Source: a bacterium
Lineage (GTDB): Bacteria > Patescibacteriota > Minisyncoccia > Minisyncoccales > RBG-13-42-11
Assembly (NCBI GenBank): GCA_030646565.1
Contig: JAUSLA010000015.1
Span: 1 to 51,468 of the forward strand
Direction of reading: 5' to 3'
Length of the DNA: 51,468 nt
Each line of letters begins with the position of its first letter. Position 1 is the stretch's first letter. Below are positions 10,321-30,306 of the stretch, piece by piece. Both the position numbers and the translations under genes were made by a program. The notes under the pieces are model-generated. The model made no database searches and was not told the origin of the DNA. It was given only the letters and a program-made list of their open reading frames with translations.

Positions 10321-12054
10321 TTAGGCCTTCCCCGTTTTTCTTCTTAAATAAGCCGGCGTCTCCCAAAATCGTTCTTTTTCAGCTATCTCCCGCTCTATTT
10401 CTTCAATTTCTTTTTTTATCTGAATGGCGTTTTTTCTGATTTTTTCCTCTCCCCCATTTTGAACTAAAACCTGCTTGACTTGAGACAATTTTTCTTCTTC
10501 CGAAAAAATAGGCGCCGTTTCTTTTTCTTTTTCCTGTTTGACAAATTCAATAGCAATCTTTTTTGGTTCTTCCTTTTCAGATTTTTCTGCTTTGCGCCTC
10601 TTTTGCGCATCCGCCGATGAGGAGGATTCTCTAATGATTTTTTTCTTTTCTGGAATCTCCTTTTCTTCTATCGCGCCCTTAACAACTGCTGATATTTTTT
10701 TGTCGAAGAGCTTCGCTCTTCTCCGCTCTTCGCTGCGGCTCGAGCTATTGATTCTTTTTTTATGTACGGGCTGTTTTTTTTCTTCTCCAGTCGGAGAACT
10801 TCGTTCTTCTACACTCTTCGCTGCGGCTCGAGTAAGCGAAGGTTTAAGAAGAGGATATAATCCTCTTCGCCTACCCTTCACTTGCGCTCGGCTAAACAAC
10901 TTCATTCCGCAGCCGTTAGCCAAAAGGGTGGTTTTAATTATTTCTGAATACTTTGGGTTTTGAGAAATTCCAAAAATAATCTTGGCTTCCGGATGAACCA
11001 ATTCGGAAATGGTCTTTGATATTTGACTCACTTCGAAAAGAGAAAGATTTTTTTCTCCCGCAATATTAAACAAAACTCCTTTTGCCCCCCGAATATTGTA
11101 GGAATACAAAGGGGAGGAAAGGACTTTGTCAATCAATTCTTTAATTGAACCTTCTTTTCTCTGTACTTCAGCGGTATTTAAGTATACCAACCGTCCCTGC
11201 CCTTCCAAAATAGTTCTGAAATCGGCAAAATCAATATTAATTAAACCCGGCTCATAAATTGTTTCAATCAAACCGCCCAAACTTTCCGCTAAATTTTTAT
11301 TAATAACCGAAAGGGCTTGTTTCAAAGGAGTATCCTTATCAATAATCTGGAAGACCCTTTCGTTGGGAATAATCGTAATGGCATTGAGAGAATTTTTTAT
11401 TTTCTTTAAAGCGTCTTTGGCAATTTCCATTTTCTTTTCGCCTTCAAATTTGAAAGGCAAAGTAAAAATGCCATACGTGAGATTTCCCAAGCTTTTAGAA
11501 ATTTTAGCAAAAATAGGAGCCGCTCCCGAACCCGCTCCTCCTCCTAAAGAAGCGACTAAAATACATAAATCCTGGCCTTCTAAGAGTTTTTGAATTTTTT
11601 CCTTTGCTTCCAGGGCCGCATCCCTGCCAAAATCAGCATTCATGCCAGTTCCCAATCCATGGGTAAGGTTCTCGCCGAATTGAAAACGCAAAACCTTTTT
11701 CCCCAATGATTTTAAAGCCTGGAGGTCAGTGTTAGCTGCCGCAAAAGAAGCCTTAGACATTCCAGGAGCAATTTCCGATACAATTGAGCCTCCCCCGCCT
11801 CCAATTCCAATCACCCTTATTTTTGTTTTTTTAATTCCCTCGTTCTCAACTTTCGGTTTTTCAATGGCAAAGGACTTTTTTGTCAAAGAGGCCTTCTGCC
11901 GTCGAGTCGAAGACAAGACGAAAGAAGAAAAACTTTTCTTCGCACTCTTCTTCACCTGCCCGAGTCGCAACGAAGGGTGGAGAAGAAGGAATCTTCTTCG
12001 ACTCGCCCCGCTTCGCGGGGCTCGGTTTTTAATTTTTTTCTTAATTTTTCGCAT
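10321..12054 (-). CDS. ftsZ: Cell division GTPase FtsZ with a long repeat-bearing linker
   Basis: The protein has IGIGGGGGS, GLGTGMNADFG and GGGAGSGAAP, plus the C-terminal peptide ETPAYLRRK. A possible alternative TTG start at 11886 lies just downstream of the 5' repeat cluster. Confidence 0.85.
   Translation of the reverse strand: MRKIKKKIKNRAPRSGASRRRFLLLHPSLRLGQVKKSAKKSFSSFVLSSTRRQKASLTKKSFAIEKPKVENEGIKKTKIRVIGIGGGGGSIVSEIAPGMSKASFAAANTDLQALKSLGKKVLRFQFGENLTHGLGTGMNADFGRDAALEAKEKIQKLLEGQDLCILVASLGGGAGSGAAPIFAKISKSLGNLTYGIFTLPFKFEGEKKMEIAKDALKKIKNSLNAITIIPNERVFQIIDKDTPLKQALSVINKNLAESLGGLIETIYEPGLINIDFADFRTILEGQGRLVYLNTAEVQRKEGSIKELIDKVLSSPLYSYNIRGAKGVLFNIAGEKNLSLFEVSQISKTISELVHPEAKIIFGISQNPKYSEIIKTTLLANGCGMKLFSRAQVKGRRRGLYPLLKPSLTRAAAKSVEERSSPTGEEKKQPVHKKRINSSSRSEERRRAKLFDKKISAVVKGAIEEKEIPEKKKIIRESSSSADAQKRRKAEKSEKEEPKKIAIEFVKQEKEKETAPIFSEEEKLSQVKQVLVQNGGEEKIRKNAIQIKKEIEEIEREIAEKERFWETPAYLRRKTGKA
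10702..10893. repeat. Three family A units inside the ftsZ C-terminal linker coding region
   Basis: The units are GTCGAAGAGCTTCGCTCTTCTCCGCTCTTCGCTGCGGCTCGAG at 10702-10746, GTCGGAGAACTTCGTTCTTCTACACTCTTCGCTGCGGCTCGAG at 10790-10832, and ...GCGAAGGTTTAAGAAGAGGATATAATCCTCTTCGCCTAC... at 10833-10893. Confidence 0.75.
11899..12027. repeat. Family A cluster at the ftsZ 5' end
   Basis: The cluster reads CCGTCGAGTCGAAGACAAGACGAAAGAAGAAAAACTTTTCTTCGCACTC...CCGAGTCGCAACGAAGGGTGGAGAAGAAGGAATCTTCTTCGACTCGCCCCGCTTCGCGGGGCTCGG. Confidence 0.8.
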
Positions 12055-12124
12055 GTTAATTAAGTTTACTCCGTTAGAAATTTGCCGTCAATATCGGTAA
12101 TAAAATTTAAAAAATACCGATATT

Positions 12125-12586
12125 TTATTGGATGCTCAAAAGTTCCACCTCAAAAATCAAAAAGGCGTTAGGCGGAATGGGACCTCCCGGCGTCCCTTTT
12201 TCTCCGTAGCCAAGCTCCGGAGGAATTGTCAGTTTTCTTTTTTCTCCAACCTTCATTCCCAAAACCCCGATATCCCAGCCCTTTATCACTTGTCCCGCTC
12301 CCAACGTAAAAGAAAATGGAACACCCCTGTCTCTGCTGGAATCAAACTTTGTGCCATCAAGAAGAGTGCCTGTATAGTGGACAGAAACAATGTTTTCGTT
12401 TTCAGCTGTTTTTCCCTGCCCTTCTTGAATAACTTCTATTTTCAATCCTCCATTTTGTTCTTTTAATATAGCCCCCTGATTTTCTGAATTATTTTCTTTT
12501 GGCTTTTCTTTGTTCTGCAACATAAAATAAAAACCGAAAACAGCGACTATTAAAACAATTATTATCAAAACAATTTTGCTGGCCAT
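12125..12586 (-). CDS. FKBP-type peptidyl-prolyl cis-trans isomerase, N-terminally membrane anchored
   Basis: The protein has a hydrophobic N-terminus followed by [24 protein letters not shown] and FEVELLSI. Confidence 0.85.
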
Positions 12587-12675
12587 ATTTTTATTATATC
12601 AGAATGATTTCCAACAGCATAATCAAAAGGCTTGAAACGATGGAAATTAAGATTACCATTTTCCAGCTTATTTTT

Positions 12676-12906
12676 CTATTTAAAAAACCCATTGATTTCA
12701 AAAATCTTATTTTGTTGCCTTGACCCCTTAACTAATTTTAATTTTCCTGCCGGGATATTCAGACGAGAAGATAGAATATTTATTACTGCCCTGTTTGCCC
12801 TCCCCTCTTTGGGTTTTTCTCTCACATAAACATTGAAGGAATCGCTGCCCCTCTTAATGATTTTATTTTCTTTTGAATTTGGAAAAACTTTAATTTTAAT
12901 AAACAT
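12676..12906 (-). CDS. DUF167 (YggU-like) protein
   Basis: IKVFPNSKENKI...EKPKEGRANRAVINILS...KLVKGSRQQNKIFEI follows the DUF167 pattern. Confidence 0.7.
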   Translation of the reverse strand: MFIKIKVFPNSKENKIIKRGSDSFNVYVREKPKEGRANRAVINILSSRLNIPAGKLKLVKGSRQQNKIFEINGFFK

Positions 12907-13973
12907 TATGCATTATGTTTTATTTCAATAACATCGCCGTCCTGAATCACGTATTCCTTGCCCTCTGTACGGATTAATCCTTTTTCCCGGGCTTGAGAGA
13001 ATCCGCCTTTATCCAAAAGGTCTTTCCAGTTTATTACTTCAGCCTTGATAAAATGTTTTTCGAAATCGCTGTGTATTACTCCTCCTGCCTGCGGAGCCAT
13101 TAATCCTTTTTTAATTGTCCACGCTCTTGTTTCATCTGGCCCTGTGGTGAAAAAAGTGATGAGACCCAACAATTCGTATGCCTTTTTTATCAAAACATCC
13201 AATTCTGATTCCGCGGGCAAACCCAAAGACAATCTTTCCTCTTTACCAAAAACTGCTGCTTCAAGTTCCGTTAAAACGTCTATTATTAAAAACGGCCAAA
13301 GATTTTTTTGAAATTCTTCCGTTATATTTTTGGGAACTTCTTCATTGCTACCGTTTAATAAATACAATCTTGGCTTTATTGTCAGGAGTTGGTATTGGCG
13401 AATGATTTTTAATTCTTCTTCGCTGAAATTCTGCTCGCTCAAAATTTTACCAGTTTCCAAAAATTCTTTAACTTTTTTAAGGATTTCTAATTCTTTTAAG
13501 GCCTCTTTTTTGCCGGTCTTTGCATCTCCCTCCAAGGAGCTTGTCCTCTTTTCTGTTGTTTCCAAATCCTTTAGTATCAATTCCATGTCCAAAATTTCTT
13601 TATCAAATATAGGATTTATTTCCGGCTGAACGTTGACTATGTCATCCTTTGAAAACGCGCGCAAAACATATAAAATCGCGTCCGTCTCTCTTATGTTGGC
13701 TAAAAATTTATTCCCAAGACCTTCTCCCTTGCTGGCCCCCTTTACCAATCCCGCAATATCCAAAAATTCAATAGTTGTGTATATTTTTTTGGCTGATTTT
13801 GTCAATTCGGCAAGCTTGTCTACTCTTTCGTCTAAAACCGCAACAACGCCCACATTGGGGTCAATGGTGCAAAAAGGGTAGTTGGCCGTATCAACTTGTT
13901 TTTTGGTTATTGTTTGGAAAAGCGTTGATTTGCCCACATTAGGCAGACCCACTATTCCTATTGAAAGCGCCAT
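12906..13973 (-). CDS. ychF: Ribosome-binding ATPase YchF
   Basis: The protein has GIVGLPNVGKST, NYPFCTIDPNVG and the C-terminal TGS-like DGDVIEIKHN. Confidence 0.9.
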   Translation of the reverse strand: MALSIGIVGLPNVGKSTLFQTITKKQVDTANYPFCTIDPNVGVVAVLDERVDKLAELTKSAKKIYTTIEFLDIAGLVKGASKGEGLGNKFLANIRETDAILYVLRAFSKDDIVNVQPEINPIFDKEILDMELILKDLETTEKRTSSLEGDAKTGKKEALKELEILKKVKEFLETGKILSEQNFSEEELKIIRQYQLLTIKPRLYLLNGSNEEVPKNITEEFQKNLWPFLIIDVLTELEAAVFGKEERLSLGLPAESELDVLIKKAYELLGLITFFTTGPDETRAWTIKKGLMAPQAGGVIHSDFEKHFIKAEVINWKDLLDKGGFSQAREKGLIRTEGKEYVIQDGDVIEIKHNA

Positions 13974-19745: not shown

Positions 19746-19791
19746 AGTCGAAGAACATTTGTTCTTCTCCACCCTTCGCTGCGACTCGGGT
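19746..19791 (-). repeat. Family A element (short hairpin 1 variant)
   Basis: The sequence is AGTCGAAGAACATTTGTTCTTCTCCACCCTTCGCTGCGACTCGGGT. Confidence 0.75.
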
Positions 19792-27246: not shown

Positions 27247-27249
27247 TTT

Positions 27250-30200
27250 ATGGATTTAGATTTCCCGAAAATAGAAACAAAAATATTAAAATTCTGGCAA
27301 GAAAAAAAGATTTTCGAGAAGCTTCGCAAAAAAAATCAAGGCCAAAAACGCTGGTCATTTTTAGATGGGCCGATAACGGCAAACAATCCAATGGGCGTCC
27401 ATCACGCTTGGGGGAGAACATATAAAGATTTATTCCAAAGGTATAAGGCAATGCAAGGTTATGATCAAAGGTTTCAAAACGGTTTTGATTGCCAGGGCCT
27501 TTGGGTTGAGGTGGAAGTAGAAAAAGAGCTTGGTTTTAAAACAAAAAAAGATATTGAAAAATACGGCATAGCCGAATTTATTGAAAAATGCAAAGAAAGA
27601 GTGAGAAAATACTCAAAAATTCAAACTGCGCAATCTCTTCGGCTTGGCCAGTGGATGGATTGGGAAAATTCTTATTATACGATGTCTGACGAAAACAACT
27701 ATGCTATATGGCAGTTTTTAAAAAAATGTTGGCAGGGAGGCCAGGTTCGCAAGGGTCGAGACGCTATTCCTTGGTGCCCTAGATGCGAAACCGCGATTTC
27801 CCAGCACGAGATTTTAACAGAAGATTATAAAGAGGTGACGCACGAATCTATTTATCTTGAATTTCCAATCGCGGGCAGGCAAAATGAATTTTTACTCGTT
27901 TGGACAACAACTCCTTGGACTATTCCAGCCAACATCGCCGTGGCGGTGGATGAGAAATTGGATTATTCATTAGTTGAAGGCAATTCAGGCGATTTTTTCT
28001 GGCTCGCCAAAGATTTGATAAGGAATGTTTTTAAAGTCGAAGAACTACGTTCTTCTTCATCTTCGTTTTCGCCATGCGAAAACTCGATAAAAAAATATAA
28101 AAAAATTATAAAAACTGTAAAAGGTAAAGAGCTTATTGGTTTAAAATACCGGGGACCGTTTGATAATTTAGACGCAGTGCGGAAAGTTGCTGATGAGAAC
28201 CAAGACAAATTCCATTTAATTATCGCAACGGATGAGCGTATAATGCCAATATCAATTGATGAGGGTACGGGTTTGGTGCATATCGCAGTAAGCGCCGGCG
28301 AGGAAGATTTTAAACTGGGTCAAAAATATGACTTGCCGATAATTCCCGTTATTGCCGATAATGCTGATTATCTTCCCGGGTTTGGTGATTTTTCCGGGAA
28401 AAACGCTAAAAATAATCCCCGTTTGATCCTTGATTATCTGATGGAAAAGGAAAAAACAGGCGAAGATTGGGTTTTTAAAATAGCTCCCTACGTTCATCGT
28501 TATCCTGTTTGTTGGCGATGCAAAACAGAACTTGTTTGGAAGGTTGCCGATGAGTGGTATATTTCTATGGATAAATTGAGGGGTCAATTGGCTAAGGCCG
28601 CCAAAAAAATTAAATGGATTCCATCTTTTGGATTAGACAGAGAGCTTGATTGGCTGAAAAATATGCATGATTGGCTAATTTCTAAAAAGCGTTATTGGGG
28701 GCTGGCTTTACCGATTTTTGAGTGTAAAAAATGCAATAATTTTGAAGTTATTGGAAGTAAAGAAGAGTTGGAAGCGAAGGCGGTTTCCGGATGGGAGCAA
28801 TTTAAAAATCATTCTCCTCACAGACCATGGATAGATGAAGTAAAAATCAAGTGTTCAAAATGCGGCGCAATCGTTTCTCGTATTCCAGACGTCGGCAATC
28901 CCTGGCTTGACGCCGGGATTGTGCCATTTTCTACGATGGGATATTTTTCCGATAAAAGATATTGGCAAAAATGGTTTCCAGCTGATTTTATTTGCGAATC
29001 ATTTCCCGGCCAGTTTAAGAATTGGTTTTATTCTCTGATTGTAATGAGCGCGGTTTTAGAGGGCGTGGGACCCGCAAAAACAATTTTTGGCCATGCTATG
29101 GTGCGCGATGAAAAGGGAGAGGAAATGCATAAATCCAAAGGAAACGCTATATGGTTTGACGAAGCTGTGGAGAAAATTGGAGCAGAGCCTATGCGTTGGA
29201 TGTATGCAAAATCAAATCCGGCGCATAACTTGCTTTTTGGGTATAAATCTGCAGAAGAAATTAAAAGAAAATTATTAACCCTCTGGAATAATTTTATCTT
29301 TTTTAAAACTTATTCAAAAACCGAGTCCCTCCTATATCGGGACGAGGTGAAGATGAGTGCGAAGAAAAGTTTTTCTTCTTTCGTCTCGTCTTCGACTCGA
29401 CGGCCGAAGTCCTCATCGCCTTCAAGTAATATTTTAGACAAATGGATTGTGTCTTGCTTGAACAACTTGATTGAAAAAGTTACCAAAAATTTGAACGAAT
29501 ATAACGCCGCAGTAGCTGTTGCGATAGAAGATTTTTTTATAGAAGATCTCTCCTTGTGGTATATCCGGAGGTCTCGTAAAAGATTCCAAAAACCGAAAAA
29601 TGATAAAGAAAAAAAAGAGGCGGTTCAAACTCTTCGCTACGTTCTTTTAAATCTAATAAAGCTGATTGCCCCTATGATGCCATTTTTATCCGAAGAAATT
29701 TATCAAAATTTAAAAACAAAGAAATTACCAGAATCCGTCCATCTTTGCGATTGGCCAGAAGCTGATAAAAAATTCATTAATGAAAAATTAGAAAAGCAGA
29801 TGCAGGAAGTTAGAGAAATTGCCGCAAAAGCTTTGGCCGAAAGAGCCAAGACAGGAATAAAAGTCAGACAGCCGCTCGCTTCTCTTAAGATAAAATCTTT
29901 GCCTACCGGCAGACGGGTCAAAAATGATAGAGAATTACTGGAGTTGATAAAAGAAGAAGTTAATATTAAAGAGATAATCTTTGATTCTAAGATAAAAAAC
30001 GAAGTGGAGCTGGATACAAAAATTACTCCAGAACTAAAAGAAGAAGGGATTATTAGGGAGATTATCCGCAACATCCAGGACTTAAGAAAAAAGGCAGGTT
30101 TAAAGCCGGAAAACAAGATTTTAGTCGTTTATTCGGCAGGTCCTAAACTAAACAAGATTTTGGAAAGGAATAAAAAATTTCTTTTGGCGGAAGCTAAAGT

Positions 30201-30306
30201 AAAGGACTTAATTTGCGAAGATAAATTCAAAAAATCGCTTGATGCGAAAAAAGATATTATGGTCGACAAGGAAAAATTATTATTAGCGATAAAAAAAGTT
30301 GGATAA
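27250..30306 (+). CDS. ileS: Isoleucine--tRNA ligase
   Basis: The protein has PITANNPMGVHHAWG (HIGH region), KSKGN (KMSKS) and editing-domain TTTPWT. It carries two in-frame family A insertions. Confidence 0.95.
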   Translation: MDLDFPKIETKILKFWQEKKIFEKLRKKNQGQKRWSFLDGPITANNPMGVHHAWGRTYKDLFQRYKAMQGYDQRFQNGFDCQGLWVEVEVEKELGFKTKKDIEKYGIAEFIEKCKERVRKYSKIQTAQSLRLGQWMDWENSYYTMSDENNYAIWQFLKKCWQGGQVRKGRDAIPWCPRCETAISQHEILTEDYKEVTHESIYLEFPIAGRQNEFLLVWTTTPWTIPANIAVAVDEKLDYSLVEGNSGDFFWLAKDLIRNVFKVEELRSSSSSFSPCENSIKKYKKIIKTVKGKELIGLKYRGPFDNLDAVRKVADENQDKFHLIIATDERIMPISIDEGTGLVHIAVSAGEEDFKLGQKYDLPIIPVIADNADYLPGFGDFSGKNAKNNPRLILDYLMEKEKTGEDWVFKIAPYVHRYPVCWRCKTELVWKVADEWYISMDKLRGQLAKAAKKIKWIPSFGLDRELDWLKNMHDWLISKKRYWGLALPIFECKKCNNFEVIGSKEELEAKAVSGWEQFKNHSPHRPWIDEVKIKCSKCGAIVSRIPDVGNPWLDAGIVPFSTMGYFSDKRYWQKWFPADFICESFPGQFKNWFYSLIVMSAVLEGVGPAKTIFGHAMVRDEKGEEMHKSKGNAIWFDEAVEKIGAEPMRWMYAKSNPAHNLLFGYKSAEEIKRKLLTLWNNFIFFKTYSKTESLLYRDEVKMSAKKSFSSFVSSSTRRPKSSSPSSNILDKWIVSCLNNLIEKVTKNLNEYNAAVAVAIEDFFIEDLSLWYIRRSRKRFQKPKNDKEKKEAVQTLRYVLLNLIKLIAPMMPFLSEEIYQNLKTKKLPESVHLCDWPEADKKFINEKLEKQMQEVREIAAKALAERAKTGIKVRQPLASLKIKSLPTGRRVKNDRELLELIKEEVNIKEIIFDSKIKNEVELDTKITPELKEEGIIREIIRNIQDLRKKAGLKPENKILVVYSAGPKLNKILERNKKFLLAEAKVKDLICEDKFKKSLDAKKDIMVDKEKLLLAIKKVG
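28036..28086 (-). repeat. Family A element in frame in ileS (17 codons)
   Basis: GTCGAAGAACTACGTTCTTCTTCATCTTCGTTTTCGCCATGCGAAAACTCG is translated as VEELRSSSSSFSPCENS. Confidence 0.8.
29320..29421 (+). repeat. Nested family A elements in frame in ileS (34 codons)
   Basis: ACCGAGTCCCTCCTATATCGGGACGAGGTGAAGATGAG[TGCGAAGAAAAGTTTTTCTTCTTTCGTCTCGTCTTCGACTCGACGGCCGAA]GTCCTCATCGCCT is translated as TESLLYRDEVKMSAKKSFSSFVSSSTRRPKSSSP. Confidence 0.85.

Follow-up and report, generated by a model that had tools for sequence, protein, structure and literature searches.

How can the gene of an essential-type cytoskeletal protein hold several copies of a dispersed hairpin repeat and still be read as one open frame? 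The question is raised by ftsZ on contig JAUSLA010000015.1 of NCBI GenBank assembly GCA_030646565.1, analysed here as a single stretch of 51,468 nucleotides (positions 1 to 51,468 of the forward strand), which we call the window. The host (GTDB lineage Bacteria; Patescibacteriota; Minisyncoccia; Minisyncoccales; RBG-13-42-11) belongs to a clade of the Candidate Phyla Radiation (CPR) whose database relatives carry the names Nealsonbacteria or Pacebacteria, and its genome comprises 770 kb in 74 contigs with 39.8% GC. The explanation that we favour, and consider probable, is that short non-autonomous hairpin repeats colonised ftsZ and are tolerated in frame in its two disordered tails, which are read from the ATG at 12054. 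Accordingly worded as a mechanism, hairpin units filling this small CPR genome would have entered ftsZ, where copies would persist confined to the Lys-rich N-terminal tail (N-tail) and the C-terminal linker, both predicted to be intrinsically disordered. They would leave the frame open because the unit consensus is without stops in any of the six frames, and they would be transcribed into a leaderless or near-leaderless mRNA and translated, most likely from ATG 12054, as additional low-complexity, mostly basic peptide, with the GTPase core and the C-terminal helix and tether-binding peptide remaining intact.

The gene, its parts and the repeat copies within it are laid out as follows, from the promoter to the end of the protein (aa, amino acids; pLDDT, predicted local distance difference test; E, expect value):

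12063-12091, minus strand: putative sigma-70-type promoter in a leaderless-type layout (TTGACG, 17 nt, TAAACT, 8 nt, ATG 12054)
10321-12054, minus strand: ftsZ, encoding the long FtsZ paralogue, 577 aa from ATG 12054 (open-reading-frame list, Pfam and structure match)
12003-12028, minus strand: module i of the N-terminal cluster (N-cluster), a hairpin-1 unit ACCGAG-CCCCGC-GAA-GCGGGG-CGAG with a 7-bp perfect hairpin, read as NRAPRSGAS (family-A E 0.003)
11956-12005, plus strand: module ii of the N-cluster, a full unit antisense to the gene, read as SRRRFLLLHPSLRLG (nhmmer E 1.2e-14)
11888-11957, minus strand: module iii of the N-cluster, a 70-nt double hairpin read as QVKKSAKKSFSSFVLSSTRRQKAS
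11884-11886, minus strand: TTG, the alternative start, taken by the automatic and public gene call (P0001, 521 aa)
10909-11823, minus strand: globular GTPase core, residues 78-382 (Pfam and AlphaFold2), with zero repeat-model matches
10444-10908, minus strand: disordered C-terminal linker, residues 383-537, without secondary structure, pLDDT 40-50
about 10834-10905, minus strand: linker unit 1, composed of a partial 5' half-unit and a reversed family-A hairpin, read as SRAQVKGRRRGLYPLLKPSL
10787-10836, minus strand: linker unit 2, read as LTRAAAKSVEERSSPTG (nhmmer E 1.3e-15)
10700-10747, minus strand: linker unit 3, 88% identical to unit 2, read as SSSRSEERRRAKLFD (nhmmer E 7.7e-14)
10336-10443, minus strand: conserved C-terminal module, residues 538-573, with a predicted helix at 543-565 and the peptide WETPAYLRRK at 10336-10365

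The identity of the protein is carried by its core, in which Pfam places a Tubulin domain (PF00091) at residues 78-239 with 115.5 bits (cut-off 33) and an FtsZ_C domain (PF12327) at residues 304-381 with 59.1 bits (cut-off 27), and which matches solved FtsZ structures over residues 78-381 (E 2e-66, 228 bits). The nucleotide-binding signature GGGTGSG reads GGGAGSG at residues 171-177, a T-to-A change, and the T7-loop reads NIDFAD with D275 and D278; G171-G173, S176, G177, D275 and D278 are invariant across 49 homologues. Of the same standing are R540, K541, Q545, E554, E561, W564, P567 and R571 in the C-terminal module, and the last ~40 residues are kept in all relatives with the consensus EEKVRKNALQIKKEAEExEKEMLEKEKFWETPAFLRKK. 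The end peptide FWETPAYLRRK thus departs from the consensus of the 49 homologues, FWETPAFLRKK, solely by F to Y and K to R, and the retention of a conserved FtsZ terminal peptide, ETPAYLRRK, noticed in the initial annotation, is borne out by the invariance of W564, P567 and R571.

Where, then, are the repeats? The AlphaFold2 model, made with 49 homologues, has secondary structure at residues 79-380 (pLDDT mostly 65-95), and it leaves residues 1-77 and 382-540 without secondary structure at pLDDT 40-53. All six repeat copies lie within residues ~10-56 and ~384-452, that is, in the parts that the model leaves unstructured, and none falls in the core or in the last ~40 residues. The suggestion of the initial annotation that the disordered linker is a safe harbour for these elements is therefore supported, with the disorder prediction that it had called for agreeing. 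Its three units in the linker-coding region were recovered at 10700-10905 by nhmmer and family-A matches, and its N-terminal cluster, placed at 11899-12027, is present with limits redrawn to 11888-12028. The N-cluster follows the first ten codons, and both ftsZ clusters have mixed orientations. In linker unit 1, the family-A match spans 10835-10873 on the plus strand (E 9e-5) around a 9-bp hairpin at 10848-10868, and unit 3 is translated in another frame of the unit than unit 2. Module ii matches a copy at 19746-19790 at 91%, and module iii has a counterpart at 29345-29414 inside ileS (27247-30306, plus strand), with 66 of 70 positions identical and the frame in common (SAKKSFSSFVSSSTRR versus SAKKSFSSFVLSSTRR). 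This 70-nt module is translated in one frame all three times that it was met, in the ftsZ N-cluster, in ileS and in the ftsZ linker of P0033/L031 (SAKKSFSSFV.SSTRR). SAKKSFSSFVLSSTR is an example of a repeat-derived peptide expected in the 577-aa protein.

The most direct view of units coming and going is offered by the sister genus G012, from which six ftsZ alleles were compared, the DNA of five of them having been retrieved in addition. The six have 95-99% core identity and open frames throughout, and between them whole units are gained or lost without breaking the frame. Four alleles have, and two lack, a 54-nt N-tail block that consists of hairpin 2 and a second hairpin 1; L032 has a private 48-nt unit at the start of its linker; L003 has another 48-nt unit farther along; and the linker of L031 carries the same module as the N-cluster of the window gene, read in the same frame. 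The remaining gaps measure 36, 33, 18, 12, 9 and 6 nt, the exceptions to multiples of three being two compensating gaps of 1 and 4 nt, which the aligner put inside a single divergent hairpin, and one of 112 nt in L003. This pattern of unit gain and loss is what the safe-harbour idea predicts. The N-tail block of G012 also lies behind the first codons, between a promoter-adjacent ATG and the core. As a separate observation, the hairpin-1 unit fixed in the G012-genus N-tail (ftsZ codons ~10-19) differs on both sides between L032 and L033 with pairing kept (CTTTC...GAAAG vs CTTCC...GGAAG), a pattern that may point either to selection acting on the hairpin or to sequence copied from one family member to another.

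Relatives without repeats, for which one genome per genus was searched, show how the tails look when units are missing. In 17 of 18 other parsed genera, the ftsZ tails have zero repeat-like hairpins and zero model matches. Linkers of repeat-free relatives are 50-121 aa long, mostly 73-104, against 157 aa here by motif-based delimitation, and N-tails of repeat-free database FtsZ proteins measure about 25-32 aa, against 78. Once the repeats are subtracted, the N-tail of the window FtsZ shrinks to ~32 aa and its linker to ~100 aa, lengths that match those of the repeat-free relatives, so that the repeats would have extended the two tails by the difference. Across the DNA of 24 ftsZ loci (23 relatives and the window gene), hairpin density is 1.9 per kb in the N-tail and 1.1 per kb in the linker, against 0.09 per kb in the core. 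Repeat-derived 5-mers number 0 among 3,234 residues of the C-terminal module in 85 proteins, and 54 in relatives' tails, where shuffling gives 22.7 +/- 5.1. The nearest relatives (P0003-P0008, 81-82% core identity) have no tail peptide in common with the window FtsZ, and the DNA of L036 has neither the window tail peptides nor hairpins nor model matches. Relatives with similar tail peptides, such as TRAAAKGKEEDLSSSPT in P0014/L032, do have a nucleotide palindrome there. The initial annotation held that linker segments conserved as protein in relatives lacking the palindromes would speak against a safe harbour; shared tail peptides always accompany the DNA palindrome, and the idea therefore passes this test. 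Three single loci may be recorded beside these comparisons. In L005 (G014), a repeat unit lies directly upstream of the ftsZ -35 box, 35-70 nt before the ATG and outside the gene. In L020 (G005), the conserved C-terminal module is lost in frame and present downstream in another frame, apparently by a frameshift or an assembly error. The ftsZ linker of L027 (G020) holds a run of N.

The units in ftsZ belong to a family that is spread over the whole genome. That genome has 770 perfect hairpins rich in GC, whereas its shuffled version has 70; a unit profile constructed from four units and searched with nhmmer gives 157 matches, and the two-hairpin family-A model gives 375, both at E<=1e-3. The repeat number is far above chance. 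Units follow the layout (T)ACC-CGAG-[short hairpin 1]-CGAAGGGTGGA-[GAAGAAC-loop-GTTCTTC]-GACTCG, and the core motif occurs 49 times in the host genome versus 0-7 times in each of 40 related genomes, with 0 occurrences of the reversed-pattern controls. Each unit is 41-48 nt long (15-16 codons), apart from the one 70-nt double module, and has one or two hairpins. The consensus has zero stops in all six frames, and 53 in-frame copies, whose counts are not fully independent, spread unevenly over these frames (19/15/8/5/4/2), with readings rich in A, S, E and R favoured. The family is mostly intergenic: 46 unit copies (29%) lie inside open frames of at least 300 aa, which make up 57% of the genome, a depletion that fits selection against most genic insertions. 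A length congruent to 1 (mod 3) was found in 1 of 26 genic copies versus 9 of 50 other copies, and unit length modulo 3 was set aside as a filter on genic copies, the trend being weak; since units usually occur in clusters, the length of a single unit is not the constrained quantity.

What might move these units was approached through candidate enzymes and target sites. RAYT transposases were rejected, since PF01797 (Y1_Tnp) matches nothing in the host genome G000 (93% complete) or in G012 (100% complete), with 6 of 14 control genomes scoring as a positive control. Small stand-alone GIY-YIG genes, of which relatives hold none to about seven, number four in G000, with open frames of 82-99 aa (C57:24152-24370, C19:2060-2266, C8:3274-3486 and C71:5884-6087); they were rejected as the mobilising enzyme, the nearest repeats lying 739-1,738 nt away versus a random median of 917 nt, which is no association. 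The 48-nt insertions of L003 and L032 have 4-nt direct repeats at their flanks, GGAG and AACC, and a 4-nt target-site duplication rule suggested by these two polymorphic insertions is unsupported genome-wide, where flank matches are at chance level and recurrent flanks look like the element itself. Set beside miniature inverted-repeat transposable elements, which are marked by terminal inverted repeats and target-site duplications, the units give a mixed picture, with inverted ends (CGAGTC...GACTCG) and the flanks just described.

Several points weigh against the colonisation of ftsZ as we describe it. Neither a transposase, with RAYT and the small GIY-YIG genes as candidates, nor a target-site rule was identified. 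Protein searches with the full length and with residues 1-261, together with a search of Joint Genome Institute (JGI) metagenomes for a degenerate DNA pattern, brought up no relative above 82% core identity and hence no empty site for the window gene; because no close relative was found, insertion into this gene rests on analogy with the sister genus. The enrichment of repeat-derived 5-mers in relatives' tails is partly compositional. The open frame through the N-cluster is weak evidence for its translation, the units being nearly stop-free in every frame, and the automatic gene call begins at TTG 11886. We infer that the copies in the window ftsZ arose by insertion, are translated and are carried as neutral passengers.

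The strongest rival to this explanation concerns the start codon. One may argue that the N-cluster at 11888-12028 is untranslated, its hairpins lying in a structured 5' leader, that translation starts at TTG 11886 and that only the three linker units are coding. The public automatic call of 521 aa agrees with such a start, as does a stable RNA fold of the N-cluster (-65 kcal/mol, z -3.1 versus shuffles), and the openness of the frame says little against it, since units are stop-free in most frames; the resulting N-tail of 22 aa would be short, yet P0047 has one of 14. Against this stands the conserved promoter layout directly at ATG 12054. In the 70 nt upstream of the ftsZ ATG in L002-L036, most of ~30 relatives have a -10-like box (TATACT, TATAAT or TAAACT) 6-8 nt upstream of the ATG and, as a rule, a -35-like hexamer some 17 nt above that box, and the long ftsZ looks leaderless across the family. 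The G012-genus block likewise follows the first codons of an ATG with the same leaderless-type promoter. Moreover, the N-terminus MRKIKKKIKN resembles the M-x-KK-x-KKK N-termini of relatives and looks ancestral, module iii is translated here in the frame of its ileS copy, the ATG frame is in phase with the core and open as far as it, and the N-tail without the cluster has the usual length, 32 aa. Genome-wide, a -10-like box immediately precedes about 11% of starts, versus 2% at random. GGAG/GAGG occurs at 8% of long-ORF (open reading frame) starts versus 7% of random positions, that is, no Shine-Dalgarno signal is seen in the genome that would favour TTG, and a Shine-Dalgarno argument for either start was dropped. 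A duplicated gene start was also rejected, MRKIKKKIKN and LTKKSFAIEK not being copies of one another. Taking these sequence features together, ATG 12054 is the likely translation start and TTG 11886 a distinctly less probable one, and the untranslated-leader explanation as a whole is unlikely. The initial annotation had left open whether the cluster extends the N-terminus or lies in the 5' untranslated region; the extension is favoured by promoter layout and N-terminus, and the untranslated placement has lost ground. With the start most likely at ATG 12054, the upstream cluster would therefore be translated.

A second alternative, which we regard as quite improbable, is that the hairpins are functional and not just tolerated, for instance in setting ftsZ expression or the stability of its mRNA through RNA or DNA structure, or in adjusting tail length. 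The two-sided changes that keep stem pairing between L032 and L033 would suit such a role, the folds of both repeat regions are more stable than those of shuffled sequence (z -3.1 for the N-cluster and -3.9 for the linker region), and such repeats occur in the FtsZ tails of several lineages. However, stem-preserving differences could also arise by copying from other family members, units are gained and lost between alleles 95-99% identical, and sites, orientations and frames differ by lineage. In addition, the same family is mostly intergenic genome-wide, and the 17 repeat-free genera of the 18 parsed have neither a repeat-like hairpin in the ftsZ tails nor a model match. Finally, that the extra segments reflect local slippage, tandem duplication or an assembly artefact rather than copies of dispersed elements is very improbable. 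In its favour, a distance of 88 nt separates units 2 and 3, which show 88% identity, and repeats often fragment or confuse metagenome assemblies, as the run of N in the L027 linker recalls. On the other side, dispersed copies that match the ftsZ units are present on many contigs (E down to 1e-15), module iii is 94% identical to the ileS copy 17 kb off, units 2 and 3 differ in reading frame, a duplication of 88 nt would not preserve the frame, and five independent G012-genus assemblies have the same architecture with intact frames.

The colonisation of ftsZ by hairpin units, which we favour, has parallels elsewhere. Our literature search found no paper on such hairpin repeats in CPR bacteria. 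The closest analogue is the Rickettsia palindromic elements (RPEs), which are given as multi-copy palindromes of a small reduced genome, many of them in frame in unrelated housekeeping genes and read through (PMC10969869, summarising Ogata et al. 2000, 2002), about 100-150 bp long and described as encoding a conserved peptide (PMC10969869). The likeness, drawn by description, is in multi-copy palindromes that stand in frame in unrelated genes, here ftsZ and ileS, with the frame continuing. The host units differ in being modular and 41-48 nt long, with one 70-nt module, versus 100-150 bp, and in being open in six frames and used in several frames and both orientations rather than for one conserved peptide; moreover, the present host is a CPR bacterium, of a lineage unrelated to Rickettsia.

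Repetitive extragenic palindromic sequences and bacterial interspersed mosaic elements (REP/BIME) of Proteobacteria are mobilised by RAYT (Y1) transposases and have a GTAG-type head. The host units resemble them as short imperfect palindromes in hundreds of copies, mostly intergenic and in clusters of alternating orientation, but they have the conserved flanks ACCGAG and CGAAG instead of a GTAG-type head, and about a quarter to a third of the copies in the host genome are genic and in frame. The case extends a known kind of event, the in-frame acceptance of selfish palindromes, to a new lineage.

The C-terminal linker of FtsZ is hypervariable in length, composition and sequence across orthologues, and its charge patterning matters (PMC9586301), so tolerance of the linker is not unlimited. 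The window FtsZ shares the arrangement of core, disordered linker and conserved end peptide, and its tolerance of repeats fits this hypervariability; what differs is that the source of length change is visible here, as whole in-frame hairpin units that distinguish near-identical natural alleles.

Which of the host's FtsZ copies is this? The window gene, flanked by a gene for an FKBP-type isomerase on one side and a carbohydrate-kinase gene on the other, is not next to ftsA, which is on another contig (C14), and so lacks the position of a division and cell wall (dcw) cluster copy. On C14 (about 11172-13366, minus strand, outside the window), ftsA is immediately followed by the gene of a second FtsZ, 309 aa long, which is nearer canonical FtsZ, with 340 bits to solved FtsZ structures versus 228 for the window copy. 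This shorter FtsZ stops with the globular core (..VIATGF*), without linker or tether peptide, as do 119 of the 119 other best homologues listed, which are 298-322 aa long, and zero repeats were found in its gene. Some CPR genomes are reported to carry a divergent FtsZ copy besides the canonical one (PMC9871819); the part of that report drawn on here does not mention the tail-less canonical copy or an end peptide present on the divergent copy alone. The window gene is this divergent second copy, as distinct from the ftsZ of the dcw cluster, and the divergent copy appears to be, among the matches listed, the only FtsZ in the clade with linker and tether peptide. FtsA, a known partner of the FtsZ C-terminal peptide in other bacteria, is encoded in the host genome; SepF was not found in it. 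In chloroplasts, FtsZ2 has the C-terminal peptide and FtsZ1 is without it, and the pair of tail-less and long FtsZ in this host recalls FtsZ1 and FtsZ2.

We tentatively raise a broader, joint proposal, which we think doubtful as it stands: mobile hairpin units may be the main source of change in FtsZ tail length and sequence in these CPR lineages, and tolerance may be high because the long paralogue would mainly carry the tether for its partner, a canonical FtsZ without a tail. If the first part were true, the hypervariability of the FtsZ linker, noted for a long time, would gain a concrete mechanism at work in nature. If the second were true, labour would be split as between chloroplast FtsZ2 and FtsZ1, and only linker flexibility and the end peptide would matter.

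At the level of annotation, the protein is likely one of 577 aa from ATG 12054, not the called one of 521 aa from TTG. More broadly, the locus is a natural experiment in which an essential-type cytoskeletal protein takes dozens of arbitrary repeat-encoded residues in its disordered tails and none in its fold or tether module. Near-identical alleles differ by in-frame whole units, and selfish DNA therefore changes tail length today. The apparent confinement of the tether peptide to the divergent paralogue in this clade, in turn, bears on how CPR bacteria divide.

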